Notes under the pieces: generated by a model
What the model was told of the DNA's origin: nothing
The model's input: the letters and a program-made list of their open reading frames with translations, nothing else
Databases searched by the model: none
Shown here: positions 1 to 60,531 of the stretch, piece after piece
Layout of the letters: every line of letters begins with the position of its first letter
Position numbering within the stretch: position 1 is the first letter of the stretch
NCBI GenBank assembly: GCA_016188865.1
Contig: JACPGX010000005.1
Coordinates: 114,081 to 178,080, forward strand
Reading direction: 5' to 3'
Length of the DNA: 64,000 nt
From: Candidatus Nealsonbacteria bacterium
Lineage (GTDB): Bacteria > Patescibacteriota > Minisyncoccia > Minisyncoccales > MHMH01
Made by a program: the position numbers and the translations under genes

Positions 1-1
1 T

Positions 2-1977: not shown

Positions 1978-2021
1978 GGAGGTTCGACCTCCCGTCATAT
2001 CTGTCGGGAGGTCGAACCTCC
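1978..2021. repeat. Palindromic repeat family A: two inverted 17-nt arms (GGAGGTTCGACCTCCCG / CGGGAGGTCGAACCTCC) with a 10-nt spacer
   Basis: The arms are perfect reverse complements. Each arm is itself a 6-bp-stem hairpin (GGAGGT-TCG-ACCTCC). The same architecture recurs at 12275-12318, with a half copy at 15659-15672. Confidence 0.85.
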
Positions 2022-2029
2022 AGATATCT

Positions 2030-3275: not shown

Positions 3276-3277
3276 CC

Positions 3278-3607: not shown

Positions 3608-3616
3608 TAATATTTA

Positions 3617-6299: not shown

Positions 6300-6359
6300 C
6301 CCGGTTCAGGACGCAGGGTTCTCATCCCTGTAACTCGGGTTCAAATCCCGATGGGGCCG
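6285..6359 (+). tRNA. tRNA-Glu (anticodon CTC)
   Basis: Cloverleaf with acceptor GGCCCTA/TGGGGCC, the D-arm GTC-TAGCCCGGTTCAG-GAC typical of tRNA-Glu, anticodon loop TTCTCAT and T-arm TCGGG-TTCAAAT-CCCGA. It overlaps the murF-like stop by 15 nt. Confidence 0.75.
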
Positions 6360-12735: not shown

Positions 12736-12774
12736 TTGTTAGACACTCGGTGTTGGACACCGAGTGTCTAACAA
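12736..12774. repeat. REP-like palindrome, family 1 (TTGTTAGACACTCGGTGT-TGG-ACACCGAGTGTCTAACAA), at the 3' flank of RAYT-1
   Basis: It has perfect 18-bp arms. A second hairpin of the same family lies at 13469-13507 on the other side of the gene. A half-site lies inside the gene at 13266-13283. Confidence 0.9.
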
Positions 12775-12777
12775 TCT

Positions 12778-13452
12778 TCAATCAAGTAATTGTTTTTCAT
12801 CTAGTATTTTGGATAAATCTTTAGCTCCGCTTGTTTCCACGAATAATTTATACTTTTCACTGCTAGAAAATTGTTTGGTGACAATGCCAGTTTCTAAAAG
12901 ATTTCCCCACCGATTTTTATTTATACAATCCTGGTAACTAGAATAAGGGAAGAGGTGTTCTCTGTCGGCCCATTCCTTGATTTCTCTTGGATTGCGGTGA
13001 ATATAAGCGGAGAGATAAAGAAGCTGGTCGTCATTTTTAATATGGACAATTTGAAATGGGCCCTGAAAAAGATGCCCCGAGATTTTATATTTTGTATTGA
13101 AGTATTTTGTATAAGCGTTTAAAACTCTTTGCATATATTGGGAAATACCGTTTTCTTTTAATCCGTGGATAATTAAATGGAAATGATTTGGCATCAGCGT
13201 GAAATTAATCAATTCTATGCTTCGATTTTTTATTATTTCCTCTACAACCTCCCGCGAGATGTTAAACACCGAGTGTCTAACAAAGCAGGCAACTTGTCTG
13301 CCGAGATTATAGAAAGTCAAATGAGATTGGCAGTGAGTGATTAAGAAAAGAAATCTTATCCAATCTTTTTCATCACGAAAAACTGGTTGTTTATTATTAC
13401 CCCTATTGTAGATGTGATAATATTCTCCGGAAACAATTTTAACTTTTCTCAT
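12778..13452 (-). CDS. REP-associated tyrosine transposase (RAYT / IS200-IS605-like HUH Y1 transposase), paralog 1
   Basis: HUH motif MPNHFHLII, catalytic Tyr motif YIHRNP, and an N-terminal GEYYHIYNRG beta-strand. It is flanked on both sides by cognate hairpins. Confidence 0.75.
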   Translation of the reverse strand: MRKVKIVSGEYYHIYNRGNNKQPVFRDEKDWIRFLFLITHCQSHLTFYNLGRQVACFVRHSVFNISREVVEEIIKNRSIELINFTLMPNHFHLIIHGLKENGISQYMQRVLNAYTKYFNTKYKISGHLFQGPFQIVHIKNDDQLLYLSAYIHRNPREIKEWADREHLFPYSSYQDCINKNRWGNLLETGIVTKQFSSSEKYKLFVETSGAKDLSKILDEKQLLD

Positions 13453-13468
13453 ACGTTCTTATTCTAGC

Positions 13469-13507
13469 ATGTTAGACACTCGGTGTCCAACACCGAGTGT
13501 CTAACAT
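13469..13507. repeat. REP-like palindrome, family 1 (ATGTTAGACACTCGGTGT-CCA-ACACCGAGTGTCTAACAT), at the 5' flank of RAYT-1
   Basis: It has perfect 18-bp arms and lies 16 nt upstream of the RAYT-1 start. Confidence 0.9.
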
Positions 13508-13665
13508 GGCAGGATTATTCAACATAGTGCCCAACATTTACTAGTGGGACTTAAACAAAATGACCCCCGTTGAATACAGGGATCATTTGCTGGCATTAAA
13601 TGCCTAAAACGTGCTTTTTTATTCGTGTCCACTAAACGGGGTACACTTCACACCCGTGTATTTTT

Positions 13666-18176: not shown

Positions 18177-18247
18177 TCCGGGGTCGTCTAATGGTAGGAC
18201 AAGGCCCTTTGAAGGCCTATATTGGGGTCCGAATCCCTACCCCGGAA
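18177..18247 (+). tRNA. tRNA-Gln (anticodon TTG)
   Basis: Acceptor TCCGGGG/CCCCGGA with the U1-A72 pair typical of tRNA-Gln. Anticodon stem AGGCC/GGCCT with loop CTTTGAA. T-arm TGGGG-TCCGAAT-CCCTA. Confidence 0.65.
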
Positions 18248-21248: not shown

Positions 21249-21437
21249 TTAGGCGTTTTTGCTTGATTTTGGTGTTCGATTTCGTAAATCGAACATTTTC
21301 TTTATCTCCTTAATTTGAGAATCAATGGAGAGCGCTTCATCCCTTTCAGTTGACTTCCTGGCGTAGAGGCAATAACGGAGAGGGGCGAGAATTGGCTGCT
21401 GCTCTCGAGCCGTTTCGATTGTTGTTTGTTGTTCCAT
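21249..21437 (-). pseudogene. Serine recombinase (resolvase/invertase) N-terminal fragment
   Basis: The translation contains YCLYARKSTERDEALSIDSQIKEIKKM, matching the catalytic-serine motif YxRVSTxxQ...SLxxQ. The frame breaks after about 60 aa. Confidence 0.5.
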
Positions 21438-22061: not shown

Positions 22062-22355
22062 ATGAACAGAAAAATATTTACAGAGGAGCAGATAAAAGAG
22101 CTATCCAGGAACAAAAACGTGCGCCGCTGCGGCGCCAAGTCCGTGAGATACAAAAGGAGCTTCAAGGAATCAGCCCTCAGGCGGTACCATGAGGAAGGAT
22201 TGAGCGCGGTTGAAATATTCAAGGCAGCCGGCTTTAATCTGAACATCATCGGCATCAGGAAGCCTAACAAGCTGATGCACCAGTGGAGCAGGGCTCCCTG
22301 CAATAAATGGGGACAGGCACCATTTCCAATCTATAGTCCTTATGTTATTGTCTAA
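22062..22355 (+). pseudogene. Transposase-associated HTH protein fragment
   Basis: MNRKIFTEEQIKELSRNKNV...LSAVEIFKAAGF is an HTH typical of the N-terminal ORF of IS elements. The reading frame runs through the 20-bp repeat copy D. Confidence 0.35.
22305..22325. repeat. Inverted copy D of the 20-bp repeat (AAATGGGGACAGGCACCATTT)
   Basis: It is in the same orientation as copy B and bounds the IS-remnant island on the right. Confidence 0.8.
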
Positions 22356-22610
22356 GCGGGACACAATGGGTTTTGTTTGATTTCGTAAATCAAACAAATC
22401 AAACAATTTTTGACGGGAAGTTCTGAGAGAGCTTCCCTTTGTGTTAGTCTGTGAAATAAACTCAACCGAGATGCTTAGTTTTTGGAATCCCAAACCAGCC
22501 AAATTTGTTCCTGAATTTCTGGTTCTAGACCGAGGATGCCAGCAGTCTAGTGCTGAGTATCGAGGACCGAGAGGGATCATTATAGTTAATGAGATAAAAG
22601 AAAAGCAGGA

Positions 22611-23313: not shown

Positions 23314-23330
23314 TATTATTTAAATGGATT
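23299..23330. promoter_or_regulatory. 32-bp perfect AT-rich palindrome (AATCCATTTAAATAAT|ATTATTTAAATGGATT) spanning the stop of the 23086 gene and the start codon of the Cys-rich gene
   Basis: It has perfect 16-bp arms. ATG 23324 lies within the right arm. Confidence 0.7.
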
Positions 23331-25030
23331 TTAAATTTATGAAGAAATATTATTTTTTATTAATTTTTATTTTTGTATTATTTTCCGGAGTTTTAGTTTT
23401 TGCTACCTCCAAAGAAGATATTACTTATCCTGTAGCTTCGTTGGGAAATTGCAAAAACGAAGCGGATTGTCTAGCTTACTGCGACAAGCCGGAAAATATG
23501 GAGCCCTGTCTTAATTTTGCCGAAAAGCATAATTTAATTACCGATAAAGAGATTGCTATAGCCAGAAAAATGCTGGCTGCAGGAAAAACTTCGGGACCCG
23601 GAGGCTGTAAAGGACAAGTTGAGTGCGGAAATTATTGTGATGACATGAGTCATATAAAAGAATGCGTTGCTTTTGCGGAAGAAAATGATTTGATGATGCC
23701 GGAAGAATTAGCAGAGGCAAAAAAAGTTGCCGCGGCCCTAGAAAGGGGGGTTCAACCTCCGCCGTGCAGCAGTAAAACAGAGTGCGATAGCGTTTGCACT
23801 CTTCCCGAAAACATGAGAACCTGCATTATTTTTGCTAAAGAAGCCGGTTTAATGCCTCCGGAAGAACTGGAAGAAGTTGAAAAAGTTTTAGCAGCGCTTG
23901 ATAAAGGAATAACGCCTCCGCCTTGCGGAGGTAGGGATAAATGCGATGAGTATTGTTCTTTGCCAGAAAATTTTGAAACCTGCATTACTTTTGCCGAAGC
24001 AGCTGGCTTTATGTCGGCAGAAGAAGCAGCTATGGTCAGGCGTACTGGGGGCAAGGGTCCGGGTGATTGTCGCGGCAAAGAAGCATGCGAAGCGTTTTGT
24101 GAAGACCCGGCTAATATGGAGCCATGTATAAATTTTGCTATTGAAAATGGTTTTATGTCCCCCGAAGAGGCGGAGCAAGCTAGAAAAATGCTAGCTGCCG
24201 GGTTTACTTCGGGCCCGGGTGGATGCAAGGGGCAGGGAGAATGCGAAGCTTATTGCGATGATATGACTCATATGACAGAATGCGTTGATTTTGCTGAAAA
24301 AGCCGGCTTTATGACTGCAGAAGATGCTGCTCGAGCCAGAAAAATGGCAGAAATGGGCATGACTGGCGGTCCGGGAGGTTGCAAGGGCGAAGAAGAATGC
24401 CGGTCATTCTGCGAAGACCCTGCCAATATGAATACTTGCATTGATTTTGCAGTTCAAATTGGCGATATGAGCCCCGAAGAAGCTGATCAAGCCCGCCAAA
24501 GAATGGGGCAGATGCAAGAGATGGAGGGCCGGATGAAAGAATGTTTAGTAATGCCCTGTCCGGATGCTCTTGCTTGTTTCCAAAGTATTCAAGGTGAACA
24601 AGGCGGCTCACCAGAAGAAGGTGAAGCAGGCGAGGGCGGCGGCGCTATGGGTTCCAGCGCAGAAATTCAGACTAAGATAGAATCCTGCATACAGGAAATG
24701 CAGCAGCAAGGTGGCGGGGAAGGAGCAGGTTTTGGTCCGGGTTCGGAAATGATGCCGCCTGAAGGGTTTGAAGGAGAAATGCCGCCGTTTAATCAAGGAG
24801 AATTTCATGAAGGCCAAATACCAGAAGGTTTTGTACCATCGGAAGGTATGAGCCAACCTCCTTCCCAAGAAGAAATGGAGAGAATAATTCAAGAAGAAAC
24901 TCAAAGAAGAATTCAGGAGGAAACTCAAAGAATGATGGAGCAATTTGTTCCGCCTCCATCTACCGAACCTCCGCCGCAGTCTTTTTTAAACCAAGTCAAA
25001 AATTTCTTAGCAGGCTTAATGGTAAGATAA
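23324..25030 (+). CDS. Secreted cysteine-rich tandem-repeat protein (about 7.5 modules of about 48 aa with the spacing C-x5-C-x3-C-x8-C and a PENM...C..FAE..G motif) with an acidic Gly/Pro/Gln-rich C-terminal tail
   Basis: An N-terminal signal peptide. The repeats are visible in the translation (CLAYCDKPENMEPCLNFAEKHN, CGNYCDDMSHIKECVAFAEEND, CDSVCTLPENMRTCIIFAKEAG, and so on). GC content is higher than in the flanks. Confidence 0.7.
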   Translation: MDFKFMKKYYFLLIFIFVLFSGVLVFATSKEDITYPVASLGNCKNEADCLAYCDKPENMEPCLNFAEKHNLITDKEIAIARKMLAAGKTSGPGGCKGQVECGNYCDDMSHIKECVAFAEENDLMMPEELAEAKKVAAALERGVQPPPCSSKTECDSVCTLPENMRTCIIFAKEAGLMPPEELEEVEKVLAALDKGITPPPCGGRDKCDEYCSLPENFETCITFAEAAGFMSAEEAAMVRRTGGKGPGDCRGKEACEAFCEDPANMEPCINFAIENGFMSPEEAEQARKMLAAGFTSGPGGCKGQGECEAYCDDMTHMTECVDFAEKAGFMTAEDAARARKMAEMGMTGGPGGCKGEEECRSFCEDPANMNTCIDFAVQIGDMSPEEADQARQRMGQMQEMEGRMKECLVMPCPDALACFQSIQGEQGGSPEEGEAGEGGGAMGSSAEIQTKIESCIQEMQQQGGGEGAGFGPGSEMMPPEGFEGEMPPFNQGEFHEGQIPEGFVPSEGMSQPPSQEEMERIIQEETQRRIQEETQRMMEQFVPPPSTEPPPQSFLNQVKNFLAGLMVR

Positions 25031-25043
25031 AAAATAAATAAAA

Positions 25044-25075
25044 ACATACGAGAACGGTTCTCGTATGTTTTTATG
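25044..25075. terminator. Bidirectional rho-independent terminator (perfect 12-bp stem ACATACGAGAAC-CG-GTTCTCGTATGT, T-runs on both sides)
   Basis: The hairpin is followed by TTTTTAT on the plus strand. On the minus strand it is followed by TTTTTATTTATTTTTT, downstream of the rnpB 3' end. Its core ACGAGAACGGTTCTCGT also occurs inside miaA and thrS. Confidence 0.8.
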
Positions 25076-25076
25076 T

Positions 25077-25442
25077 CCCAGCAAGTCTATAAGCCGAATT
25101 CTGTTCCGCCTCGTCGGCGGATGGTAATTATCTATCTAGGTCCGACATCGCTGTCGAGACTCTGTGCGAGTTACTTTTAACGAAAGTTCCAAGATGAATC
25201 CCAGAACTTCCGGTTTACTCTTGCTCTTGGGTAAGAATTTAGCCGTTTCACCCTTCGACAAGCTCAGGGCAAGCCCCAAACTAGTGAAGACTCGTCTCTG
25301 TTCGCATCTCTGCCTCGCCCAAAATTTTGGGCGGGCGGCAGGTGTTACCTGCTACCTTTTTAACCCCCGTTAAACGGGGAGTAAGAGTTCGGACTTTCCT
25401 CCAGGCACAGTCTTGTGCCTGGCAATCACCCGACTTACTGGG
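25077..25442 (-). ncRNA. rnpB: RNase P RNA (bacterial type A-like)
   Basis: The minus strand contains GGAGGAAAGTCCGAACTC (P4 5' strand), AGGGTGAAACGGC (the GGGUGAAA region) and ACAGAATTCGGCTTAT (P4 3' strand). A P1 helix forms between CCCAGTAAGTC and GACTTGCTGGG. Confidence 0.8.
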
Positions 25443-27762: not shown

Positions 27763-28986
27763 ATGCCGGTTACAGTAGTTCTAGGAGCACAATGGGGAGA
27801 CGAGGGCAAAGGAAAGATAACCGATTTTTTAGCCAAAAAAGCCGATGTTTGCGTTAGATTCAGCGGCGGCGATAATGCCGGACACACGGTAATAAACAAG
27901 CGGGGCGAGTTTAAGCTTCATTTGATACCTTGCGGAATCTTCAATCCGGAAACCTTGTGTATTATCGGAAACGGAGTAGCGGTCAATCCTAATGTTTTGA
28001 TTGGGGAAATGGCTGCCTTGGAGCAGAGAGGCGTTAGCTGTAAAAATTTGAGAATAAGCAGTAAGGCTCATTTAATTATGCCATGGCATTTGGCCCTTGA
28101 CGGCCTGCAGGAAGAAGAAAGAGGCGAAGGAAAAATCGGCACAACCAAGCGCGGCATAGGCCCGGTATTTTCAGATAAAATAGGCAGATTCGGATTGAGG
28201 GTAGAAGATCTTTTTGCGGAAAACATGGAGCAAAAATTAAGAAAACTTCGAGAGCGGTCAGCCACTTTGCTTTTGATGGTTTATGGCTACAAGAGCTATG
28301 ATTTAATGTACGATGTTATTTTGAAAAACCTGCTAGACTTTAAAAATCGCATTTCTCCGTTTGTCACCGAAACCGAACCGGTTCTTTGGGAAGCTTGCGA
28401 TCAAAAGAAAAGAATTTTAATGGAAGGGGCTCAGGGGATTATGCTTGATCCTGATTTTGGAACTTACCCCGAAACCACTTCTTCGCCATGCACCTTAGCT
28501 AGCGCTTTGCAGGGTTCCGGAATTTCCTGGATGGAGATTAAGGAAGTAATCGGCGTGGTTAAGGCTTATACGACAAGGGTTTGCGAAAAAAATATCCCCT
28601 TTAAAACTGAAATGCCAAGCGCAATAGCCGATCCCTTCAGGGAGCACACCAAAGAGTATGGCGCAACTACCAACAGGCCGAGAAGAATCGGCTGGCTGGA
28701 TGCTTCCTATTTAAGATACGCTGCGAGAATAAATGGTTTTACCGGTTTGGCGGTTACTCGGATGGACAGCTTGGGCACATTTCACTTTTCTGGAGGAAAA
28801 GTGAAAATTTGGGACGGCAATAAATATCTTGAGATGCCGGGCAAGTGGGGCAGAGATATTAAACACCTCAATGCCATACTGTTTTTGCAAGCTGTTGAAA
28901 AACTGGCAGGGGTTAGGGTCAAATACATTTCTTACGGGCCGGAAAGAGAACAGGTGGCGATTGTAAAAAACAGATTTTTATTTTAA
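27763..28986 (+). CDS. purA: Adenylosuccinate synthetase
   Basis: GAQWGDEGKGK and GGDNAGHT motifs. SD AGGAGG lies upstream of ATG 27763. The ORF-track start at 27745 is upstream of the SD. Confidence 0.9.
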   Translation: MPVTVVLGAQWGDEGKGKITDFLAKKADVCVRFSGGDNAGHTVINKRGEFKLHLIPCGIFNPETLCIIGNGVAVNPNVLIGEMAALEQRGVSCKNLRISSKAHLIMPWHLALDGLQEEERGEGKIGTTKRGIGPVFSDKIGRFGLRVEDLFAENMEQKLRKLRERSATLLLMVYGYKSYDLMYDVILKNLLDFKNRISPFVTETEPVLWEACDQKKRILMEGAQGIMLDPDFGTYPETTSSPCTLASALQGSGISWMEIKEVIGVVKAYTTRVCEKNIPFKTEMPSAIADPFREHTKEYGATTNRPRRIGWLDASYLRYAARINGFTGLAVTRMDSLGTFHFSGGKVKIWDGNKYLEMPGKWGRDIKHLNAILFLQAVEKLAGVRVKYISYGPEREQVAIVKNRFLF

Positions 28987-37720: not shown

Positions 37721-37792
37721 CGCGGGGTGGACTAGCAGTAGGTCGTCTGGCTCATAACCAGAAAATCGCCGGTGCAATTCCGGCCCCCGCAA
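37721..37792 (+). tRNA. Initiator tRNA-fMet (anticodon CAT)
   Basis: 5' CGCGGGG and 3' CCCCGCA give the C1xA72 mismatch. An A11:U24 pair and the anticodon loop CTCATAA are present. It closely parallels E. coli tRNA-fMet. Its anticodon stem has only two consecutive G-C pairs. Confidence 0.8.
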
Positions 37793-37808: not shown

Positions 37809-37883
37809 GCCGGCGTAGCTCAGTGGTAGAGCAATGCCTTCATAAGGCAGTGGTCGTCAGTTCGAATCTGACCGTCGGCACCA
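37809..37883 (+). tRNA. tRNA-Met or tRNA-Ile2 (anticodon CAT), CCA encoded
   Basis: Acceptor GCCGGCG/CGTCGGC with G1-C72. D-arm GCTC-AGTGGTA-GAGC, anticodon loop TTCATAA, T-arm GTCAG-TTCGAAT-CTGAC, and a genomically encoded ACCA. Confidence 0.75.
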
Positions 37884-38056: not shown

Positions 38057-38132
38057 GGGCTCATGGTGTAGCCCGGTCTAACACGCCTCCCTGTCACGGA
38101 GGAGATCAGGGGTTCAAATCCCCTTGGGCCCG
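38057..38132 (+). tRNA. tRNA-Asp (anticodon GTC)
   Basis: Acceptor GGGCTCA/TGGGCCC, discriminator G73, D-stem GTGT/ACAC, anticodon loop CTGTCAC and T-arm AGGGG-TTCAAAT-CCCCT. Inverted TTTGCGCAAAGC / GCTTTGCGCA flanks extend the acceptor helix. Confidence 0.85.
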
Positions 38133-41108: not shown

Positions 41109-41133
41109 ATGTAACGGGTACGACCCGTTACAT
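41109..41133. repeat. REP-like palindrome, family 2 (ATGTAACGGGTACGACCCGTTACAT), at the 5' flank of RAYT-2
   Basis: A perfect 10-bp stem with an ACG loop. It ends at the RAYT-2 start codon. Confidence 0.9.
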
Positions 41134-41851
41134 GCATAATATGCCGGGGAAAAGAAAGGTACAATTTGTTAATGGGGGAATATATCATATCGTAACGAGA
41201 GCCGTTGATGGCACGGAACTTTTTCGTGAACAAGGCGATAATCTTCGGATGACTCATGATATTTTTGAATTTAATGATTTAACGCCACTTTCATCAGCGT
41301 TGCGAATTGTTCATTGTCGAAATAAAAATAACACCATTCCTCTTACTACGGAACGCAGAGAAAGGAAATTATTAGTGGAAATCTTGGCATTTTGTTTTAT
41401 GCCTAACCATGTTCATTTATTACTTAGACAACTTCAAGACAGGGGAGTTCAAAAATTTATGCAAAAATTAGGTGGTTACACCACTTATTATAATAAAAAA
41501 TATCAGAGGCAGGGTTATCTTTTTCAGGGCAGATATCGAGCAGTTCACATTAAAGATGATAAACAATTAATGACGGTATTTGTTTATATTCATACTAATC
41601 CAGTGGCCCTTCTTTACCCGGGCTGGAAAGAAAGAGGTATTAAAGATATTAAAAAGGCCATAGAATTTATTAATCAATATAGATGGTCAAGCTATTTGGA
41701 TTATCTGGGAATTAAGAATTTTCCGTCTTTGACCAGTAGAGAATTTTTAATAAAAACAATAGGTGGAATGGAAGAGTGCCAAAGATTAGTAGAAGATTGG
41801 CTTTATCAAAAACGTGTACTATTTGACCTTGATAAGGTCGCACTGGAATAA
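41132..41851 (+). CDS. REP-associated tyrosine transposase (RAYT), paralog 2
   Basis: HUH motif MPNHVHLLL, Tyr motif YIHTNP, and the C-terminal WSSY motif (RWSSYLDYLG). The start is set at the ATG overlapping the palindrome; 41141 is also possible. The ORF-track start at 41084 reads through the palindrome. Confidence 0.75.
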   Translation: MHNMPGKRKVQFVNGGIYHIVTRAVDGTELFREQGDNLRMTHDIFEFNDLTPLSSALRIVHCRNKNNTIPLTTERRERKLLVEILAFCFMPNHVHLLLRQLQDRGVQKFMQKLGGYTTYYNKKYQRQGYLFQGRYRAVHIKDDKQLMTVFVYIHTNPVALLYPGWKERGIKDIKKAIEFINQYRWSSYLDYLGIKNFPSLTSREFLIKTIGGMEECQRLVEDWLYQKRVLFDLDKVALE

Positions 41852-41875
41852 TGTAACGGGTACGACCCGTTACAT
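41851..41875. repeat. REP-like palindrome, family 2, at the 3' flank of RAYT-2
   Basis: A perfect copy overlapping the RAYT-2 stop codon. Confidence 0.9.
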
Positions 41876-41932
41876 TTAGTTTTCCACAATTGGGGGCTTG
41901 ATTTTGACTTAATTTTAGGGTAAAATAGAGTA

Positions 41933-46918: not shown

Positions 46919-47332
46919 TTGATATTTAATATGTCAGAAAATTTCGATAAAAAGGGAACAATTAAAGCAATGGGGATTGCTTTAATTGTAGCTATTTTGG
47001 GAATAGTGGTTTTGGGCTGGCAGTATAATCGGTTAGAAAAACAGCAACTGCCGGCCCTAGAAGAAAAAATAGAGCAGAATTCTGCCCGGGATGTTTTAAG
47101 AAGGTATTTAGAAACGAGAGCAGATATTCTTTTGACGGAAAGGGCGATGGAGCAAAAAGTTAGGGGAGAGTTTGTTTTGGAGGATATTAAATCTTACGAA
47201 ATTTTAAAAGTTGAAAAGGTAGCCGATGAGCAATATAAATTTCACGTTAAAGTCGGAGATTTTACTGAGATAATTACTCTGATTAAGGTTCTGAGCAGTT
47301 ATTATATAGACGCCATTGACACAGCTGGTTAA
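46919..47332 (+). CDS. Hypothetical membrane-anchored protein
   Basis: One TM helix. No recognisable domain. Confidence 0.4.
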   Translation: MIFNMSENFDKKGTIKAMGIALIVAILGIVVLGWQYNRLEKQQLPALEEKIEQNSARDVLRRYLETRADILLTERAMEQKVRGEFVLEDIKSYEILKVEKVADEQYKFHVKVGDFTEIITLIKVLSSYYIDAIDTAG

Positions 47333-48547: not shown

Positions 48548-48621
48548 GGATGTCCGAAACCGCGCGTCAACACCCGGTGTTGACGAAGAAACACCGGGTG
48601 TTTAATCGGTTTCGGACATCC
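48548..48621. promoter_or_regulatory. Composite palindromic element: an outer 15-bp perfect inverted repeat (GGATGTCCGAAACCG / CGGTTTCGGACATCC) enclosing two tandem palindromes (GTCAACACCCGGTGTTGAC and AAACACCGGGTGTTT) whose centres are 21 bp apart
   Basis: Read directly from the sequence between rplK and the dCMP deaminase start. There is no downstream T-run. The ORF-track N-terminal extension at 48550 lies within this structure and is rejected. Confidence 0.6.
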
Positions 48622-49638: not shown

Positions 49639-50256
49639 ATGGAAAAAAATCCATATCTTGGCAAATTTATCGTTTTTGAGGGGTTGGATGGCTCCGGGCA
49701 ATCAACTCAGGCAGCTCTTTTAAAAGATTTTTTGGTTCAGAGTGGCCATGGTGTTATTTTAACAAAAGAGCCGACTATGGATTCCGGAGCCGGCAGGCAA
49801 ATCCGCCAAGTTTTGAACAAAAATACAGGGGTGCAACCCCTGTATCTGCAGGAGTTGTTTGCCGAGGATAGAAGAGAGCATTTGGCTAATGTCATCGCTC
49901 CAGCTTTAAAAGACGGAAAAATAGCGATATCTGATCGGTATTTTTTTTCCTCCTTTGCTTATGGAGCAGCTTCGGGAGTAGACTTAGAAGAGCTTATTAA
50001 ATTAAACCAAGGTTTTTTGACACCCGATTTAACTATAATTTTAAAAGTAAGGCCGGAAGTTTGTATGGAAAGAATAGGGAAAAGAGGAGAACCGCAAACT
50101 CTTTTTGAGGAAGCAGAAAGACTTGGGATGGTATGGCAGACCTATCAGGCATTGCCGGAACGTTTCGAAAATGTTTATATTATAAATGGTGAAAGGCAAA
50201 TTAAAGAAGTTTTTTCAGAAGTCAAAGAAATAGTACGTTCAAAATTGAATTTATAA
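49639..50256 (+). CDS. tmk: Thymidylate kinase
   Basis: P-loop FEGLDGSGQST, the DRY-like DRYFFSS motif and a lid region. Confidence 0.9.
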   Translation: MEKNPYLGKFIVFEGLDGSGQSTQAALLKDFLVQSGHGVILTKEPTMDSGAGRQIRQVLNKNTGVQPLYLQELFAEDRREHLANVIAPALKDGKIAISDRYFFSSFAYGAASGVDLEELIKLNQGFLTPDLTIILKVRPEVCMERIGKRGEPQTLFEEAERLGMVWQTYQALPERFENVYIINGERQIKEVFSEVKEIVRSKLNL

Positions 50257-50974: not shown

Positions 50975-50999
50975 TATTTATTAATCCATATGTTATATT

Positions 51000-51028
51000 A
51001 AAGTAGCGGGAACATTTCCCGTTACTTT
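51000..51028. repeat. REP-like palindrome, family 3 (AAAGTAGCGGGAA-CAT-TTCCCGTTACTTT), at the 5' flank of RAYT-3
   Basis: 13-bp arms with one A-C mismatch. It is related to family 2 through the shared GTAACGGG...CCCGTTAC core. Confidence 0.85.
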
Positions 51029-51032
51029 AATT

Positions 51033-51743
51033 ATGCCGAGTAAAAAAAGGCCGCCATTAGTTAATAGCGAGATATATCATATAGTAATAAGGACAGTAGA
51101 GGATCTTAAACTTTTTCGTGATGACCACGATTTTTTAAGAATGATACATGATTTATTCGCTTTTAATGACACAGTGCCAGTTTCCTCATATTTTCGTAGG
51201 GATAAAGTAACGGGAACGTTTCCCGCTACTTTTATGAAGAGAAAAAGAGAAGTATTGGTTGAAATTTTAGCCTTTTGCTTGATGTCGAATCATGTTCATT
51301 TATTAGTACGTCAATTAAAAGACGATGGAATAAGTAATTTTATGAGAAAAATTGGAGCCGGTTACAGCGCTTATTATAATCAGAAATATAAGAGAGCTGG
51401 TCATGTTTTTCAGGGAAGATATAAAATAGTTCATATAACCAATGATAATCAGCTAAAAACTATTTTTGTATATATTCACACTAATCCAGTGGCAATTATT
51501 TATCCCCACTGGAAGGAGGAAGGGATCGGAATTAAATATTTAGGCAAAGTTATTCAATTTATAGAAGAATACCGTTGGTCAAGTTATTCAGATTATCTTG
51601 GAAATAAAAATTTTCCATCTCTGACTTTCAGAGAATGGTTGATGGGAGAGATTGGCGGGATCAACGAGTGCCGAAGATTTATTAATGATTGGCTGGAAAC
51701 AAAAAAAGATTTAGCTGATTTGGATAAAATTGCTATCAATTAA
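51033..51743 (+). CDS. REP-associated tyrosine transposase (RAYT), paralog 3
   Basis: HUH motif MSNHVHLLV, Tyr motif YIHTNP and the RWSSYSDYLG motif. It is closest to paralog 2. It contains an in-frame copy of its own REP palindrome at 51204-51232. Confidence 0.75.
   Translation: MPSKKRPPLVNSEIYHIVIRTVEDLKLFRDDHDFLRMIHDLFAFNDTVPVSSYFRRDKVTGTFPATFMKRKREVLVEILAFCLMSNHVHLLVRQLKDDGISNFMRKIGAGYSAYYNQKYKRAGHVFQGRYKIVHITNDNQLKTIFVYIHTNPVAIIYPHWKEEGIGIKYLGKVIQFIEEYRWSSYSDYLGNKNFPSLTFREWLMGEIGGINECRRFINDWLETKKDLADLDKIAIN
51204..51232. repeat. REP family 3 palindrome embedded in-frame within the RAYT-3 coding sequence (encodes KVTGTFPATF)
   Basis: AAAGTAACGGGAA-CGT-TTCCCGCTACTTT. It lies in the variable loop between the N-terminal strand and the HUH motif. 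Paralog 2 has no insertion at this position. Confidence 0.85.
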
Positions 51744-51747
51744 TTTT

Positions 51748-51776
51748 AAAGTAACGGGAAATGTTCCCGCTACTTT
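51748..51776. repeat. REP-like palindrome, family 3, at the 3' flank of RAYT-3 (inverted orientation)
   Basis: AAAGTAACGGGAA-ATG-TTCCCGCTACTTT, 5 nt after the stop. Confidence 0.85.
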
Positions 51777-54796: not shown

Positions 54797-54840
54797 AAAA
54801 GGGGAGAGATCGCTAAGATCTTCTCCCCTTATTTGTTTAT
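54797..54840. terminator. Bidirectional rho-independent terminator (GGGGAGAGATC...GATCTTCTCCCC)
   Basis: The stem is flanked by an A-run upstream and a T-run downstream. It serves the small ORF on the plus strand and miaA on the minus strand. Confidence 0.7.
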
Positions 54841-55722
54841 AAATTTTTGAGCTAAACTTTTAGCTTCTTTGTAGTTTTTCACCCAATAAATGCGATTATC
54901 TCTTTTGAACCAAGTCATTTGGCGTTTGGCAAAATGCTCAATATCTTTTTGCAATAAACTAACGAGAACCGTTCTCGTCAGTTTTGATTGCAAATATCGC
55001 GCGAGCCAGCGGTATTCTAAGCCGAATTCTTCCAGCTGTTTCCAAGAAACGCCCGACTGGCGCAGTTTTTTAACTTCGGCAATCATGCCTTGTTTAAGCC
55101 TTTTAAGCAGGCGTTTTTTTATTAATTTTTTTAACTCTTCAGGAGATTTTTTAATTCCAATCATTAATACGGGATAGGGCAGTGGATTTTTCTGCAAAAC
55201 AGGGACAACTCCTATTTTTTTTGCAATTTCTATGGCCCTGATTAGCCTTCTGCGGTTATATCTATCAATAGTGTTAGCCCTTCTCGGATCAAGCTTTTTT
55301 ATCTTTTCAAATAACGCTTCAGTGTTTAAACTATTGAGGCCCGACCTCAATAGTAAATCAGGTTTTACTTCGGGGATTGCGATGCCATCTACCACTGCTT
55401 GGATATAAAAACCAGTTCCGCCGCAAAGAATGGGAATTTTGTTTTTTTTGAATATTTTATTTATTGCCGCCAGCGCCATTTTTTTATATTCAGCTACTGT
55501 AAATCTTCTTTTAGGAGAAGCGACGTCTAAAAGATGGTGAAGGATGCCTTGCTTTTCTCTTTTGCTGATTTTGCCTGTGCCGATATCCATGCCTTTGTAA
55601 ACCTGCCTTGAATCAGCTGAAATAATCTCGCCATTGAATTTTTTAGCGAGCTTGACGGCTAATCCAGATTTTCCGGAAGCTGTTTGCCCTAAAATAACGA
55701 TGATTTTTTGAGCTATTGACAT
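54829..55722 (-). CDS. miaA: tRNA dimethylallyltransferase
   Basis: P-loop GQTASGKS and DSRQVYKGMDIGT motifs. It contains an in-frame 23-bp palindrome at 54959-54981. Confidence 0.9.
   Translation of the reverse strand: MSIAQKIIVILGQTASGKSGLAVKLAKKFNGEIISADSRQVYKGMDIGTGKISKREKQGILHHLLDVASPKRRFTVAEYKKMALAAINKIFKKNKIPILCGGTGFYIQAVVDGIAIPEVKPDLLLRSGLNSLNTEALFEKIKKLDPRRANTIDRYNRRRLIRAIEIAKKIGVVPVLQKNPLPYPVLMIGIKKSPEELKKLIKKRLLKRLKQGMIAEVKKLRQSGVSWKQLEEFGLEYRWLARYLQSKLTRTVLVSLLQKDIEHFAKRQMTWFKRDNRIYWVKNYKEAKSLAQKFINK
54959..54981. repeat. Palindrome CTAACGAGAACCGTTCTCGTCAG (22/23) in-frame within miaA, encoding LTRTVLV
   Basis: The same palindrome occurs perfect within thrS at 60281-60303. Its core occurs in the terminator at 25044-25068. 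Confidence 0.9.
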
Positions 55723-55776
55723 TTTTATATAAATTGTTTAATATATATATTAGAAACAAAGTTTTAAGGAGGATAG

Positions 55777-56124
55777 ATGGGAAGGTGTTATTTCAGCGTA
55801 GAGTACAATCATCCGGAGCACCCCGATAATATCTGCGCAGTGGACTGGGATTGTTGGGCTAAGGGCCGCTGGGTAAGATCGTGGAGGAGCGATTTCCAGT
55901 GGCACAAAGAAGACGAAGACGGAGGTCATGTGGGAAAACTCGGGTTCCAGGCTATAGTCGATAAATTTGGACTAAATGGCTTGGATCACGAATTAACCCC
56001 AGAAAATATTGAGTTTATGAGTCCGGCACGATTGATGGCGTTCAGAAGGCAAAAGGGTTTGCCGTATAGAACAATACTGAGCGATACATTGGGCGATCCT
56101 AGTCCGGCTGAAGAATACGACTAA
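55777..56124 (+). CDS. Hypothetical protein (115 aa), GC-rich relative to flanks
   Basis: SD AAGGAGG. A terminator at 56135-56160. No recognisable motif. Confidence 0.4.
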   Translation: MGRCYFSVEYNHPEHPDNICAVDWDCWAKGRWVRSWRSDFQWHKEDEDGGHVGKLGFQAIVDKFGLNGLDHELTPENIEFMSPARLMAFRRQKGLPYRTILSDTLGDPSPAEEYD

Positions 56125-56134
56125 AAGAAATTAC

Positions 56135-56160
56135 AAAGGCTGAGAAATCAGCCTTTTTGC
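56135..56160. terminator. Hairpin GGCTGA-GAAA-TCAGCC with flanking T-runs on both strands
   Basis: It overlaps the last codons of the miaB-like gene. Confidence 0.55.
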
Positions 56161-57209
56161 TTGCCCTGAGGACCTTCGGCTGAGCTCAGTCGAAGACCCG
56201 CGTCGAAGGGCTTAACCATACTCATTAAAACCATTTCTCTTCGTTTTTTTTCCTTGAAAGGAACGTCGTCTTTTATAAGAAATGCGGCGGTGCCGGTCCT
56301 TGGAGAGTATTTGGAGATATAAGCTATGTTAAAACAAAGTTCCTTGAATAATTTAACGGTATTTCCGAATTGCTTTTTTGTTTCTCCGGGGAATCCGACT
56401 ATTGCATCAGTAGATAGGTTTATATCGGGCATTTTGTCTTGTATTTTCTTAATTAAATCCTTGTACTGCTTAATGGTGTAGCGCCTGTTCATTTTTTTTA
56501 AGATTTCGTTATCCCCTGACTGTACCGGCAAATTAAGAAATTTTGCCACCTTCCTGCATTTCGCCATAGTTTCAATTAATTCATCCGTAAAATCTGCAGG
56601 ATTCGGGCTGGTAAATCTTATTTGAAAATCTCCAGGAATTTTGTTAATCATATTCAGCAGTTTTGCAAAGTTAATCCGGTCTGATTTGTAGTCGTTGACG
56701 TTTTGTCCTAATAGCCATATTTCTTTAATGCCGTTTTTAACCGCGTTTTTTACTTCGTTTAAGATTTCTTTGTGGTTGCGGCAAACCAAAGGCCCACGAG
56801 TATGGGGAACTACGCAATAAGTGCAAAAGTTATTGCAACCGTTAGATATGGGAATATATTTTGACTTGACGTAAGATTGAGACCATGGTTTGAATTGTAC
56901 GTCGTCAAAGATTTTTTGGAATTTCCCCCTGTCTTTTTTTAAAATACAGCCGGTTAAAATTTTCTTAGCTTTTAAATTTTTGAATTTTGGCGTCAAGCCG
57001 ATAACCCGATCAACGGCAGATTGCCTTACCGAGCACATATTAACCATGACCAAATCGGCCTCGCTTATTTTTAATGTTAATTTATAGCCCTTGTATTCCA
57101 AATCGGCAGCAATTTTCTCTGAATCAGATTTATTCATCTGGCAGCCGAATGTAATGATATGATATTTCTTCATATCAAGCATTTTACAATAAAAAAGCGG
57201 CTTTTTCAA
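56148..57209 (-). CDS. MiaB/RimO-family radical SAM methylthiotransferase, C-terminally truncated (no TRAM domain)
   Basis: MTTase N-terminal domain (ITFGCQMN) and radical SAM CNNFCTYC. The last 16 codons run into GC-rich sequence that appears foreign. Confidence 0.7.
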   Translation of the reverse strand: MKKPLFYCKMLDMKKYHIITFGCQMNKSDSEKIAADLEYKGYKLTLKISEADLVMVNMCSVRQSAVDRVIGLTPKFKNLKAKKILTGCILKKDRGKFQKIFDDVQFKPWSQSYVKSKYIPISNGCNNFCTYCVVPHTRGPLVCRNHKEILNEVKNAVKNGIKEIWLLGQNVNDYKSDRINFAKLLNMINKIPGDFQIRFTSPNPADFTDELIETMAKCRKVAKFLNLPVQSGDNEILKKMNRRYTIKQYKDLIKKIQDKMPDINLSTDAIVGFPGETKKQFGNTVKLFKELCFNIAYISKYSPRTGTAAFLIKDDVPFKEKKRREMVLMSMVKPFDAGLRLSSAEGPQGKQKG

Positions 57210-57218
57210 GGCCGCAGT

Positions 57219-58808
57219 TTAGTGTATTTCTTCTTTCTTTTCCCTTAAAAACGATCTCCATTGTTCTAGAAATTCCAAAAATACCTGAAATGGCATATCG
57301 AGCAGGGAATTTAACAAAACAGCTACCGCGTTATATTTCTGCCATTGGCTGGAAAGCCATTTGCCGACCTGGATTATCGGCAAAGAGAAAAGATCAATAA
57401 AGGTTTGCAGGAAGCTCTCTTTATCTTTTTCCATCTTAAGCTCTCTCGCCCTTTGGCGGATTTTTATACCGGCAAAAGATATTAAAGAAGTGAACATTAG
57501 AAAAATAATAATAGAAATCGGGCTGAAATTTAATTTTCGCAAGCCCCAGACGATCAAACCGAAAGAGGCGATAAAGCTAAGGAGGTAAATAAGCACCATA
57601 ATTGAATTTAAAATAAGTCCTCTTTTGGGCGCTGTTCTGATTTCATAAATATCTTTCCCTTCTCTTTCATAGGCTATTTTCATTATTTCCATTACAACCA
57701 ATTGTTCATTTTGCCTTGAAGGGGGTTTAATGGAAATAACCAAAAAAACCATCAGAAGCGGAGGAATCAAGATATTTATTCCCATATTGAAATAATCAAA
57801 GGCGCCCGTGACATATTTATCGAAAGGCACTTCAATCGCAAAAGCTATCAGCATTTTAGATAATAATATGGAAAGAGTGCTGTAAAAAGCAGCTCTTTTC
57901 AAACTGCCCTTAACTTTTTTTAATCTTTCTTTATAAACAGCTTTGATTTTGTTTTCTAAAACTTCGGGATTACTTAAAATATTTTCTATTTCCGATGGTT
58001 CTGCAGAAATAATATCGCCCAATATTAAGTAAGCCGTATCGTATCTTTCGCAAATAGCATAGAATTTTTCAGTAAGAGGGTGGCGAAGGCTGTTTTCCAC
58101 CTTTTCCCAAGTAAAATAAATATTTTTTGCTATTTGTTCAAATTTTTCTGAAGGAAGGTTGCGCCAATCGGGCAGCCAAGTCTTTAAAAGGTTATAACTT
58201 ATAAGCGGAACATCAAACTTAAAAAGAGCTTTTTGAATTGCAATGTAAATTTGAGTATTTTTTTCTTCCTGGCTGATTTTTGATTCGATTCTTTCCCGCA
58301 TCAGTTCGAGCATAAAACCCATTAAAGCAGTTTCTCTGATAGGCGGAGCTAAAATTTCTTCTATTTCGCAAGCAGCAATTCCTAAAACCCAGTCATGAAG
58401 CTGCATATGCCCCTTTTTATTTGACGAAGACGGAATACTGTCTAGATTATCTAAAATATAAGTGTACTTATCGATTGACTTTTGAATTTCGGCTATTTTT
58501 GTTTCAGGAATGGCATCATTAAGAAAGTGTCCGCCTCTGATTAATTCATTGACAAATGGTTCTGAAATCTCTTTGCCTTTTCTTCTTAAAAATAACCGCC
58601 TTTTTAAAACCCTTTCTATGGCAGTTTTTCTCAAGAGGTGCTCTTCCCGCCAGTCAACAATACCTCGCATTTTTTCATAAAAAGTGGCAACCCTGCTCAC
58701 CACTTCATCGACGTGGATTGTGGGAATTCCTTCCTTAATTCTGGAGGAGCTGTACCAATTTTTATAGCCGGATATGAGTTTTTTTGTTGCTTGAGATATT
58801 TCAGGCAT
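57219..58808 (-). CDS. Large hypothetical membrane protein (soluble N-terminal half, multi-TM C-terminal half)
   Basis: A 529-aa ORF with about 5 TM helices between residues 300 and 470. No recognisable motif. Confidence 0.4.
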   Translation of the reverse strand: MPEISQATKKLISGYKNWYSSSRIKEGIPTIHVDEVVSRVATFYEKMRGIVDWREEHLLRKTAIERVLKRRLFLRRKGKEISEPFVNELIRGGHFLNDAIPETKIAEIQKSIDKYTYILDNLDSIPSSSNKKGHMQLHDWVLGIAACEIEEILAPPIRETALMGFMLELMRERIESKISQEEKNTQIYIAIQKALFKFDVPLISYNLLKTWLPDWRNLPSEKFEQIAKNIYFTWEKVENSLRHPLTEKFYAICERYDTAYLILGDIISAEPSEIENILSNPEVLENKIKAVYKERLKKVKGSLKRAAFYSTLSILLSKMLIAFAIEVPFDKYVTGAFDYFNMGINILIPPLLMVFLVISIKPPSRQNEQLVVMEIMKIAYEREGKDIYEIRTAPKRGLILNSIMVLIYLLSFIASFGLIVWGLRKLNFSPISIIIFLMFTSLISFAGIKIRQRARELKMEKDKESFLQTFIDLFSLPIIQVGKWLSSQWQKYNAVAVLLNSLLDMPFQVFLEFLEQWRSFLREKKEEIH

Positions 58809-60531
58809 CTTTTTCCATTTTAACTTTTTCTGTGAATTTACTCAACTCCATAGCTCCAATATCGCCCCTTCCCCTTTCTCTAACGCTTATTTTGCCAGAT
58901 TCAGCTTCCTTGTCGCCCACGACTATGAGGTAGGGGACTTTTTGAAGTTCGCCTTCTCTGATTCTTTTAGAAACAGTTTCATTTCCATTATTTATCTCAA
59001 TTCTAAGGAAGTTAAGCTCATCTCTAATTTTTTCCGCATATTGATTATGTCTGTCGGCTATGGGAATGATCATGCATTGAACCGGTGATAGCCATAAAGG
59101 TAAGGCTCCCGCATAGTGTTCCAGAAGAAAAGCCATGGTTCTTTCTATGGCGCCGATTGAAGAGCGGTGTATGACAATCGGCTCTTTTTCCTTGCCATCT
59201 TGATCAATATAGCTAAGTTTGAATCTTTTGGGCATAACAAAATCGTACTGTATGGTAAAGGCAGTGTCTTCTTTCCCGGCGAAGTTTTTCATTTGAATGT
59301 CGATTTTCGGGCCGTAAAAAGCAGCCTCTTTTTGAGCTTCAAAAAAGTTATCTTTGCCTCTTTTGGTAAGAACGTTTCTTAAAACTCCCTCGGCAAAATT
59401 CCAGGCCTCGTTATCTTTAAAATATTTTTTAGAGTCTTTTCTGTCGCCTAAGGATAATCTATAGCGATAATTTACGCCGGCTTTCAGCCCTAATTTTAAA
59501 GCCATATATTCGATTAAATCTAAAACTCCATTGATTTCGTCCATAGCCTTTTCTTTTTGGCAGATAATATGGGCATCGGCTAAACAGAAAGATCGTACCC
59601 TGATTAGGCCGGTCAATTCGCCCGATTTTTCGTATCGAAATTGCTTGGCTAATTCGGCAATCCTAAAGGGCAATTCTTTATATGACCTTGGTTTTGAAGC
59701 ATACAGCTGAAAATGATGAGGGCAGGTCATAGGTCTTAAAATCAGCTCTTCCTCGTCAATTTTCATGACAGGATACATTGAATCTTTGTAATACGGATAA
59801 TGCCCCGACGTTTTATACAGTTCCACTTTGGCTAATTCTGGAGTATAAACGTGCTTATAGCCTCTTTTTATTTCTTCATCGACTACAAAACGTTCCAGTT
59901 CCCTTCTAATGATAGATCCCTTTTCGGTAAACAAGGGGAGGCCCTTGCCGACTAAATCGGAAAAAACAAATAAATCTAAATTTTTTCCTATAATCCTATG
60001 GTCTCTTTTTTCAGCTTCTTCCTGTATTTTGAGAAAATCCTCCAGTTCTTTTTTTATTGCAAAAGCTACCCCGTATATTCTGGTCAGCATTTTATTTTTT
60101 TCAGAGCCCTTCCAATAAGCTCCGGCAATTTTCGTCAGCTTAAAAGCATCGGGGGTTATCTCTTTTGTTGATTTAACATGCGGCCCCGAACACAAATCAA
60201 CAAACGTTCCTGATTCGTATATAGTCGGCTGCTTAATTTCCTTTAGCAGCTCTAGCTTATACGGTTGTTTTTTGAACATCCTGACGAGAACGGTTCTCGT
60301 CAGTTTTTGTTTTTTGAAAACAATGTTTTGCGCCAGCAGTTCGCGCATTTTTTTCTCTATTTTCAGCAGGTCTTCCGGCGCTAGGGGAACGGATAATTCG
60401 AAATCGTAATAAAAGCCGTTTTCAATGGCGGGCCCAATGCCAAATTTGGCGCCGGGATATAACTCCTGCACTGCGTAAGCCATTATATGGGCCAAAGAAT
60501 GGCGGATAGTTTCGATTTTAGCAGACATCAA
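58801..60531 (-). CDS. thrS: Threonine--tRNA ligase (short form without the N-terminal TGS/editing extension)
   Basis: SLAHIMAYAV (zinc-site HxxxH region), class II motifs and a C-terminal anticodon-binding domain. It contains an in-frame 23-bp palindrome at 60281-60303. Confidence 0.9.
   Translation of the reverse strand: MMSAKIETIRHSLAHIMAYAVQELYPGAKFGIGPAIENGFYYDFELSVPLAPEDLLKIEKKMRELLAQNIVFKKQKLTRTVLVRMFKKQPYKLELLKEIKQPTIYESGTFVDLCSGPHVKSTKEITPDAFKLTKIAGAYWKGSEKNKMLTRIYGVAFAIKKELEDFLKIQEEAEKRDHRIIGKNLDLFVFSDLVGKGLPLFTEKGSIIRRELERFVVDEEIKRGYKHVYTPELAKVELYKTSGHYPYYKDSMYPVMKIDEEELILRPMTCPHHFQLYASKPRSYKELPFRIAELAKQFRYEKSGELTGLIRVRSFCLADAHIICQKEKAMDEINGVLDLIEYMALKLGLKAGVNYRYRLSLGDRKDSKKYFKDNEAWNFAEGVLRNVLTKRGKDNFFEAQKEAAFYGPKIDIQMKNFAGKEDTAFTIQYDFVMPKRFKLSYIDQDGKEKEPIVIHRSSIGAIERTMAFLLEHYAGALPLWLSPVQCMIIPIADRHNQYAEKIRDELNFLRIEINNGNETVSKRIREGELQKVPYLIVVGDKEAESGKISVRERGRGDIGAMELSKFTEKVKMEKDA
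60281..60303. repeat. Perfect palindrome CTGACGAGAACGGTTCTCGTCAG in-frame within thrS, encoding LTRTVLV
   Basis: It is the reverse-complement orientation of the miaA copy. The encoded peptide is identical. Confidence 0.9.

Follow-up and report, generated by a model that had tools for sequence, protein, structure and literature searches.

A palindrome shared by thrS and miaA of a Nealsonbacteria genome is probably a REP-type hairpin of a RAYT transposase family widespread in Patescibacteria

The DNA analyzed here is a 64,000-nucleotide (nt) stretch of contig JACPGX010000005.1 from Candidatus Nealsonbacteria bacterium, referred to at its full length as the window. Its minus strand carries the genes for threonine-tRNA ligase (thrS, 58801..60531; 576 aa; PF07973, PF00587, and PF03129) and tRNA dimethylallyltransferase (miaA, 54829..55722; 297 aa; PF01715), and both genes host the palindromic element with which this study is concerned. 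The 23-mer CTGACGAGAACGGTTCTCGTCAG is present in thrS at 60281-60303 with 0 mismatches and in miaA at 54959-54981 on the minus strand with 1 mismatch (22/23); the number of matches expected by chance is 0.00, as estimated from 100 dinucleotide shuffles. ThrS, MiaA, and one of the transposases encoded in the window match NCBI proteins of a 245-kb contig at 100% identity. The thrS copy spans codons 76-83 (LTRTVLV followed by R), and its subtype has the consensus AAAA-CTG-ACGAGAAC-S-GTTCTCGT-CAG-TTTT. In miaA, the 23-mer falls on codons 248-255 and is the core of a longer copy (54949..54993), in which flanking TTGCAA...TTGCAA lengthens the hairpin to 45 nt. These positions and mismatches, as well as the heptapeptide LTRTVLV that both copies encode in the frame of the host gene, had been proposed in a first-pass annotation of this DNA and were borne out, the heptapeptide by the translations of the minus-strand open reading frames (ORFs). 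The two genic copies differ in the center base, which is the sole determinant of the orientation of the palindrome. Because this base coincides with the wobble position of the Thr codon (ACC/ACG), orientation is silent in the LTRTVLV frame. The element had also been called a perfect palindrome, which holds for its arms; at 23 nt the center base is unpaired, and the RNA folds into a 10-bp stem with a 3-nt loop.

A 17-nt core, ACGAGAAC[C/G]GTTCTCGT, is found three times in the window (25048-25064, 54962-54978, and 60284-60300), with two of the three copies inside ORFs; no such matches are obtained in shuffled sequence. The remaining copy is an intergenic palindrome with an 18-bp stem (25038..25074) that bears the core at its top and belongs to the subtype AAAAACAT-ACGAGAAC-G-GTTCTCGT-ATGTTTTT. 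It lies between ORF 23324..25030 (plus strand), 8 nt past the stop codon, and the 3' end of rnpB (minus strand). That the core forms part of a terminator-like intergenic hairpin, as the first-pass annotation had it, proved correct, and the hairpin spans 25038-25074. The G+C-rich hairpin and U-run of a terminator are both present there, with A/T runs on both sides, and are seen for the genic copies only on the antisense strand. Judged from its sequence, the intergenic hairpin could plausibly serve both ORF 23324..25030 and rnpB as a bidirectional terminator. The RNase P RNA encoded by rnpB (25074-25441, minus strand; RF00010, 114.9 bits) directly adjoins the hairpin with its 3' end and is probably terminated by it. 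The ORF on the other side specifies a secreted-looking protein of 568 aa with Cys-rich repeats of ~45 residues (C..C..PENM..C..FA) and an acidic low-complexity tail. Other RNA genes of the window are five tRNA genes (6285-6359, 18177-18247, 37721-37792, 37809-37880, and 38057-38132), three of them clustered at 37.7-38.1 kb. Rfam yielded nothing at the three sites of the element, and a known RNA family was rejected on this basis.

The same palindrome is found next to transposase genes in related bacteria. In six Patescibacteria contigs (L105, L113, L040, L030, L048, and L022), the ACGAGAAC palindrome brackets a gene for a Y1/HUH transposase resembling the REP-associated tyrosine transposases (RAYTs), which are encoded between inverted copies of a repetitive extragenic palindrome (REP). 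The layout is constant: the distance between the end of the 5' copy and the start codon is -2 to 30 nt, codons ~54-72 of the transposase ORF contain a copy in frame, and the 3' copy begins -2 to 16 nt past the stop codon. In L105, a contig from the scan of metagenomes, AAAACTGACGAGAACCGTTCTCGTCAGTTTT, which is exactly the thrS/miaA subtype, adjoins the start and stop codons of a RAYT gene with 62% identity to R51, one of three homologous genes in the window described below. In the Nealsonbacteria contig L113, the AAACAT...ATGTTT subtype of the intergenic copy occupies the 5', internal, and 3' positions. L040 (Saccharibacteria), L030 (Parcubacteria), L048, and L022 likewise contain R51 homologues between copies of the ACGAGAAC palindrome. 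IS200 has a hairpin over its ribosome-binding region, immediately before the start codon, and by analogy the 5' copy that covers the start region of the RAYT gene would block the binding of ribosomes.

The window itself contains three ORFs of the Y1_Tnp family (PF01797), each bracketed by its own palindrome family. R51 (51033..51743, plus strand) has the HUH motif NHVHLL and the Tyr motif VYIHTNP. Its 5' REP (50997..51031; AAAGTAGCGGGAA-CAT-TTCCCGTTACTTT) is GTAG-tagged and ends 1 nt before the start codon, its internal in-frame REP (51204..51232) encodes VTGTFPAT at codons ~58-67 in a linker modeled as disordered, and its 3' REP (51748..51776) is inverted relative to the 5' copy. The R51 repeat, GTA[G/A]CGGGAA...TTCCCG[T/C]TAC, belongs to the ACGAGAAC family, from whose core it differs by one compensatory pair, and its foot is GTAG with a G.T/A.C mismatch. 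R41 (41132..41851, plus strand) is bracketed by GTAACGGGT-ACG-ACCCGTTAC at 41109-41133 and 41850-41876, with a degenerate repeat copy from 41011. R12 (12778..13452, minus strand) is flanked by palindromes of 39-41 nt (12736-12774 and 13468-13508) and has a shortened internal copy near 13266. The foot tetranucleotide is GTAG in the R51 repeat and in the subtype of the Parcubacteria metagenome-assembled genome (MAG) RS_17_37, and CGTC in the thrS/miaA subtype; the CAT...ATG subtype has neither. The linker peptides of RAYT proteins include TRTVLV, ARTVLA, SRTVLD, and PRTVLG, which correspond to all four outer-base-pair variants of N-CGAGAAC.GTTCTCG-N'; this indicates that the repeat within the ORF tracks the repeat type. 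Other linkers contain YENGSR, from another frame, or are derived from other repeat families.

For all three window proteins, the best NCBIfam match is NF047646, REP-associated tyrosine transposase (E 3.5e-14 to 1.7e-10), and the IS200 TnpA model matches them at E ~2e-3 to 5e-3. The AlphaFold model of R51 (pLDDT 82.9) has 4ER8_A as its top fold match in the PDB (E 5.9e-6, TMt 0.68), and 4ER8, a RAYT bound to a REP hairpin, outranks the IS608 and ISDra2 transposases in the fold search; a PDB search by sequence with the RAYT gave no match. Apart from the termini, the only low-confidence stretch of the model is residues 52-69, i.e., the linker formed by the internal repeat. All of 57 homologues share residues N86, H87, H89, Y147, H149, N151, and P152, which belong to the HUH and Tyr motifs. 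The family comprises more than 1000 protein clusters, with the source-named ones coming from Nealsonbacteria, Parcubacteria, Pacebacteria, and the 'Patescibacteria group', and its proteins have 225-250 aa with the C-terminal extension YRWSSY.DYLG..NFPSLT.

The hairpins could, with quite a low probability, be the ends or remnants of an autonomous insertion sequence (IS) of the IS200/IS605 type, with gene and hairpins forming one mobile unit. The enzyme superfamily (the protein is a member of the Y1_Tnp family), the presumed recognition of a hairpin on single-stranded DNA, and the hairpin just 5' of the start codon are common to both kinds of element; furthermore, paralogues number three in 64 kb and four in a single 271-kb contig from Nealsonbacteria, many homologues are on contigs of ~1 kb, as is typical of repeats that break assemblies, and L113 stops within its 3' hairpin. 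Against these stand flanks that are a single palindrome in two inverted copies, not two different ends, and a separate repeat family for each paralogue. Moreover, dispersed solitary hairpins are more numerous than the genes and are found far away from transposase genes, and both the hidden Markov models and the fold place the protein nearer to RAYT than to the TnpA proteins of IS200, IS608, and ISDra2. A fragment of another transposase gene, of the IS110 family (PF02371; 21531-22004, minus strand), is located in the window between the related palindromes TGTTCGATTTCGTAAATCGAACA and TTTGTTTGATTTCGTAAATCAAACAAA (21273-21295 and 22372-22398), the second of which lies within ORF 22170..22580.

The distribution of the 17-mer was assessed in one genome per species (185,579 species), which gave 92 loci, about half of them in Patescibacteria, the candidate phyla radiation (CPR). 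By our own arithmetic, ~70 matches are expected by chance, which accounts for the scattered single matches. Several MAGs contain multiple exact copies of the core, namely, Parcubacteria RS_17_37 (10), Saccharibacteria CAYIJU01 (8), Nealsonbacteria CSMAG_2411 (6), and Portnoybacteria PFOG01 (6). The apical 15-17 nt of the core, CGAGAAC-N-GTTCTCG, are conserved across CPR phyla, and the lower stem covaries genome by genome: at the four base pairs beneath the core, 59-78% of 82 CPR copies are complementary, as compared with 31-36% in shuffles, with all four pair types represented. This covariation points to a folded single strand, and the presence of one core in distant CPR phyla suggests horizontal spread. 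Among the other host genes of the element are pheT, enolase, a Mur ligase, an AddA-like helicase, glycosyltransferases, and an RNase HII-like gene, so that a signal specific to thrS and miaA, which the first-pass annotation had considered, is not supported. Roughly 40% of the CPR copies are intragenic (counted by eye, ORFs >200 aa); many copies thus do not have the extragenic location of a REP. Net insertions by the element amount to +11 residues in pheT, +5 in PMT, and +11-14 in the RNase HII-like gene, where two copies are in tandem, and some other genic copies are near-neutral in length (-3 or -1).

Several loci found in this survey are worth describing in their own right. In the RNase HII-like gene (L046, ~453-492; L089, ~3840-3880), the tandem REPs are read in the frames YENRSR and then ARTVLV, and the gain of 11-14 residues is relative to L096. 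A protein of 416 or 479 aa with no Pfam match (L050, 6353-7600, Saccharibacteria; L058, 5803-7239, Parcubacteria; 47% identity) contains the REP at one N-terminal site in both lineages, either as an old genic copy or as part of a gene that travels with the element. In the Bacteroidaceae MAGs L018 (7300-8000), L034, L042, and L079, three of which are from ruminant gut samples, and in the metagenome contig L108, the 17-mer occurs in runs of adjacent palindromic units; L018 has tandem arrays of 22-nt units made from several different short palindromes. These look like a different kind of repeat array. Carriage of the element by phages was rejected, as the four single matches in IMG/VR are at chance level.

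A conserved palindrome of this kind might also be a DNA uptake signal or the operator of a dimeric protein, enriched by biased uptake or by selection. CPR bacteria are considered dependent on taking up DNA, the core is conserved across distant CPR lineages, and copies at terminators and in tolerated reading frames are reminiscent of uptake sequences. Such signals are, however, expected to be accompanied by a continuum of near matches, and the window has none: no further site matches the core at up to 2 mismatches, the count at 1-3 mismatches is 0, and sites at 4-5 mismatches are at chance level, the repeats of R51 itself excepted. The half-site GTTCTCGT is not enriched on its own, with three of its four occurrences in the window being within palindromes. 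Copies are thus perfect or absent, and the three perfect cores with 0 sites at 1-3 mismatches imply that copies arise by copying rather than by gradual convergence; gradual drift toward a consensus, as in uptake sequences, was rejected for the same reason. Together with the covarying stem, which points to a folded single strand, and the tight physical link between the element and a transposase gene, this makes an uptake signal or operator very improbable.

How the element affects its host proteins was assessed with 120 homologues each of ThrS and MiaA. The palindrome-encoded segment of ThrS aligns without a gap to [IV][ST]K..AKK of near relatives, and that of MiaA aligns with no length change to [IL]-[SN]-Y-x-E-M-x-E. 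The claim of the first-pass annotation that the element causes no length change therefore stands, and its description of the displaced segment as an S-x-EEA-[LI]-E helix was right in spirit: near relatives have [IV]-[ST]-K-x-x-A-K-K in ThrS and the above MiaA motif, and more distant ones ISKEEAKELF or ISKEEMIEKL. Most orthologues lack the palindrome and have no gap in its place; the hairpin is absent from ~115 of the 120 ThrS and ~108 of the 120 MiaA homologues, including relatives at 81-85% identity. Among the ThrS homologues, LTRTVLV is shared only by P0003, with LARNVLA in P0007 and P0012, and about a dozen of the MiaA homologues are aberrant at the site, with length changes of -1 to ~+30 residues. 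The colonized sites are highly variable (92nd percentile of sequence variability in ThrS, 99.7th in MiaA). A second, unrelated perfect palindrome is present in miaA (55330..55354; stem 10, LLRSGLNS); it is length-neutral, and the orthologue in L100 has a different stem-10 palindrome at those codons. In an AlphaFold model of MiaA (pLDDT 87.6), both palindrome-encoded segments are in or at the start of confident helices; since the model is driven by an alignment mostly without the element, no more can be concluded than that a helix is compatible with the segment.

At the thrS site, the window has CTGACGAGAAC-C-GTTCTCGTCAG, and the palindromes of relatives either differ from it by compensatory changes or are of different sequence. 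L093 has the perfect palindrome AAACTAACGAGAAC-G-GTTCTCGTTAGTTT, with the foot pair changed from G:C to A:T and the center base flipped; L094 has ATTAGCGAGAA-ACG-TTCTCGCTAAT, with an A:T to G:C change; and the distant Nealsonbacteria contig L070 has a different perfect palindrome, TTATCGAAGTC-C-GACTTCGATAA, at the identical center nucleotide. Ordinary codons without a palindrome are found at this site in L096, L097, L115, L114, and L101. A filled (L093) and an empty (L096) thrS allele both come from ERZ4903072. At the miaA site, L098 has ATGTAACGAGAA-GTG-TTCTCGTTACAT, with the core as in the window and unchanged length, L099 an unrelated stem-14 palindrome of unchanged length, L100 another stem-14 palindrome (+2 residues), and L094 two palindromes (+19 residues); L101 has no palindrome. 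(The dnaE gene of this last contig, a related Nealsonbacteria contig, at 1-3649, contains an intein with a weak Hint match and faint LAGLIDADG matches, and the dnaE of the window has none.) Relatives encoding the same peptide by non-palindromic DNA were not encountered: LTRTVLV, LARNVLA, and VTRSVLV are all encoded by palindromes, with compensatory changes in the arms. The constraint thus acts on the hairpin, not on the peptide. A neighbor-joining tree of ThrS and the identity matrix leave the order of P0001-P0005 unsettled, and P0007, with the hairpin, is 85% identical to P0013, without it. A single gain at the thrS site was rejected, as the distribution needs at least 2-3 gains, or recombination.

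These orthologous sites bear on two further explanations. The first is a locally selected intragenic hairpin of RNA or single-stranded DNA, e.g., an antisense terminator, a translational pause site, or a protein-binding site, that changes in situ, its arms kept complementary by selection or by template switching from one arm to the other, with its likeness to a REP being secondary. It would fit the four thrS orthologues with perfect palindromes on one center nucleotide, in which 5 of the 11 stem pairs are changed on both sides, and the sense-strand pairing that the miaA copy keeps through a G.U wobble. It would also fit the T-runs that follow both genic copies on the antisense strand, where they are scored as terminator-like. 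Synonymous-codon shuffles, in addition, give far fewer in-gene perfect palindromes than the window contains (16 vs 2.4 for stems of at least 9, 6 vs 0.17 for stems of at least 11). However, the antisense T-runs are ancestral upstream Lys codons read on the other strand, nearly all homologues do without the hairpin, the sequence is identical, flanks included, to repeats that flank RAYT genes, and the element is also present in many unrelated genes and intergenic sites. Local selection as the origin of the element is accordingly considered unlikely. Further perfect palindromes in ORFs (stems 10-14), each single-copy in the window, are at 658-684, 46958-46989, 28780-28806, 48565-48585, and 49823-49845; their hosts are genes for a DUF4015 glycosyl hydrolase, a dCMP deaminase, and a thymidylate kinase, and a 137-aa ORF.

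The second explanation is an artefact of assembly or sequencing, given that chimeric reads can yield palindromes. It is hardly credible for an element that is in frame in intact ORFs of many independent assemblies (NCBI, ENA, JGI, and Logan) and that shows compensatory substitutions between orthologous copies.

Taken together, the 23-mer in thrS and miaA is very probably a REP-type hairpin belonging to a RAYT (Y1/HUH) family that is widespread in Patescibacteria. The proposal that a mobile or REP-type palindrome has entered coding sequence with the frame kept, already put forward in the first-pass annotation, is supported by copies that bracket RAYT genes, by multicopy MAGs, and by orthologues that are mostly empty, and the identity of the element may be regarded as settled as far as sequence can settle it. 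Several observations nevertheless weigh against this assignment. The copy number is low (3 in the 64-kb window and, for exact copies, 6-10 in individual MAGs), as compared with more than 100 per genome for classical REPs. The NF047646 scores are 41-53 bits (best 52.9), under the NCBI cut-off of 80 bits. No RAYT gene bracketed by this exact palindrome is present within the 64-kb window, the cognate gene being inferred from relatives. In at least three lineages, perfect palindromes of differing sequence at the thrS site are on exactly one center nucleotide, which could mean a locally maintained hairpin instead of repeated insertion. Known Y1 transposition adds DNA, yet no length at all is gained or lost here or at several orthologous sites, and no convincing target-site duplication or boundary microhomology was found at the thrS and miaA copies or at the orthologous sites. 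Two candidate traces of the insertion process were rejected. The TTCAAAAAACAA repeat that flanks the thrS copy reflects ancestral FKK...FKxQ motifs and is not identical in L093, and it was discarded as a target duplication; an origin in which one arm is ancestral and the other template-switched is not supported, as neither arm matches the empty site in L099, L100, or the window, with the exception of a possible CTC-CAA match to the empty site at one edge in L099.

As for the mechanism, the RAYT presumably copies the hairpin, which it would recognize on single-stranded DNA, and would thereby mediate its spread. Since ~89% of the window consists of ORFs, there is little intergenic room, and copies may survive mainly where a TRTVLV or ENGSR peptide is tolerated, which would also account for recurrent hits at the same permissive sites. 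The net length may be restored by the copying mechanism itself or by later trimming; exact neutrality would come either from the mechanism or from selection and trimming where the length of a helix is fixed. Most likely, the genic copies are passengers that the host tolerates, with a stable mRNA hairpin and an antisense terminator-like structure as possible side effects. The predicted sense-strand fold has -15.6 kcal/mol in thrS and -22.8 kcal/mol in miaA (z -7.0), as compared with -4.9 at an empty site; sense termination is unlikely in thrS because there is no downstream U-run. A more specific proposal, which we put forward tentatively and regard as rather doubtful, is that RAYT-linked hairpins overwrite coding DNA by a length-preserving exchange of a hairpin for sequence or for another hairpin, hitting the same codons again with the arms kept complementary, and that the copy in the RAYT ORF is a cis-acting site of self-recognition or autoregulation that covaries with the flanking copies. 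Recurrent sites of this kind would be codons 76-83 of thrS (at least three lineages, same center nucleotide) and the miaA site (at least five different palindromes). If true, this would be an undescribed way in which Y1 transposases act, or in which template switching maintains palindromes.

The family has much in common with the REP/REPIN-RAYT systems of E. coli (TnpA-REP, 4ER8) and Pseudomonas, namely, I) a hairpin repeat of 20-40 nt; II) a transposase gene between inverted copies of its own repeat (REPtron); III) a repeat family for each paralogue, with covarying stems; IV) a GTAG foot with a G.T/A.C mismatch, in the R51 repeat; and V) terminator-like intergenic copies at the 3' ends of genes. 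In contrast to those systems, many CPR copies are intragenic and in frame, they are mostly singlets rather than REPIN doublets and are few per genome, the CPR RAYT has a C-terminal extension and an in-frame repeat copy in a disordered linker, and one core is common to distant CPR phyla. Our literature search found no paper linking RAYT or REPIN with CPR taxa.

Intragenic REPs of the GTAG/CGTC type have been reported within known protein genes, among them ones for tRNA synthetases and DNA repair, where they are in frame and were judged tolerable at flexible parts of the protein; they were described as insertions, more than half of them dimers or grouped, encoding 20-30 residues (Di Nocera et al. 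2013, PMC3733652). By contrast, 8-10 codons are replaced without a change in length by the copies in thrS and miaA and by several palindromes at orthologous sites, with the same codons hit repeatedly by different palindromes. Rickettsia palindromic elements (RPEs; cited in PMC3733652), the classic example of in-frame elements, are selfish palindromic DNA in housekeeping genes of a reduced genome, with host proteins thought to be functional. The in-frame presence in functional protein genes is common to RPEs and the element described here, which differs in its size of 23-31 nt and in causing zero net length change in ThrS and MiaA. RPEs are ~100-150 bp long and add tens of residues. They are not known to have an associated transposase gene, and their sequence family and host lineage are unrelated to those of the CPR element.

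REP/RAYT systems, REPtrons, and intragenic REPs are thus well described; what looks new is a CPR-wide RAYT-REP family, the copy of the repeat within the transposase ORF, the frequency of in-frame copies in essential genes, and recurrent length-neutral replacement of identical codons. The repeats break CPR assemblies, as several RAYT contigs stop in a hairpin, and could lead annotation and analyses of recombination astray. How replacement can be both length-neutral and recurrent is a concrete question about the mechanism of Y1 transposases and about the maintenance of palindromes, and the genic copies form a natural collection of 'peptide swaps' that point to permissive positions of conserved enzymes. 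REP/RAYT systems are seen as inhabitants of the DNA between genes, and the family described here shows selfish DNA persisting in genomes that have almost no spacer.

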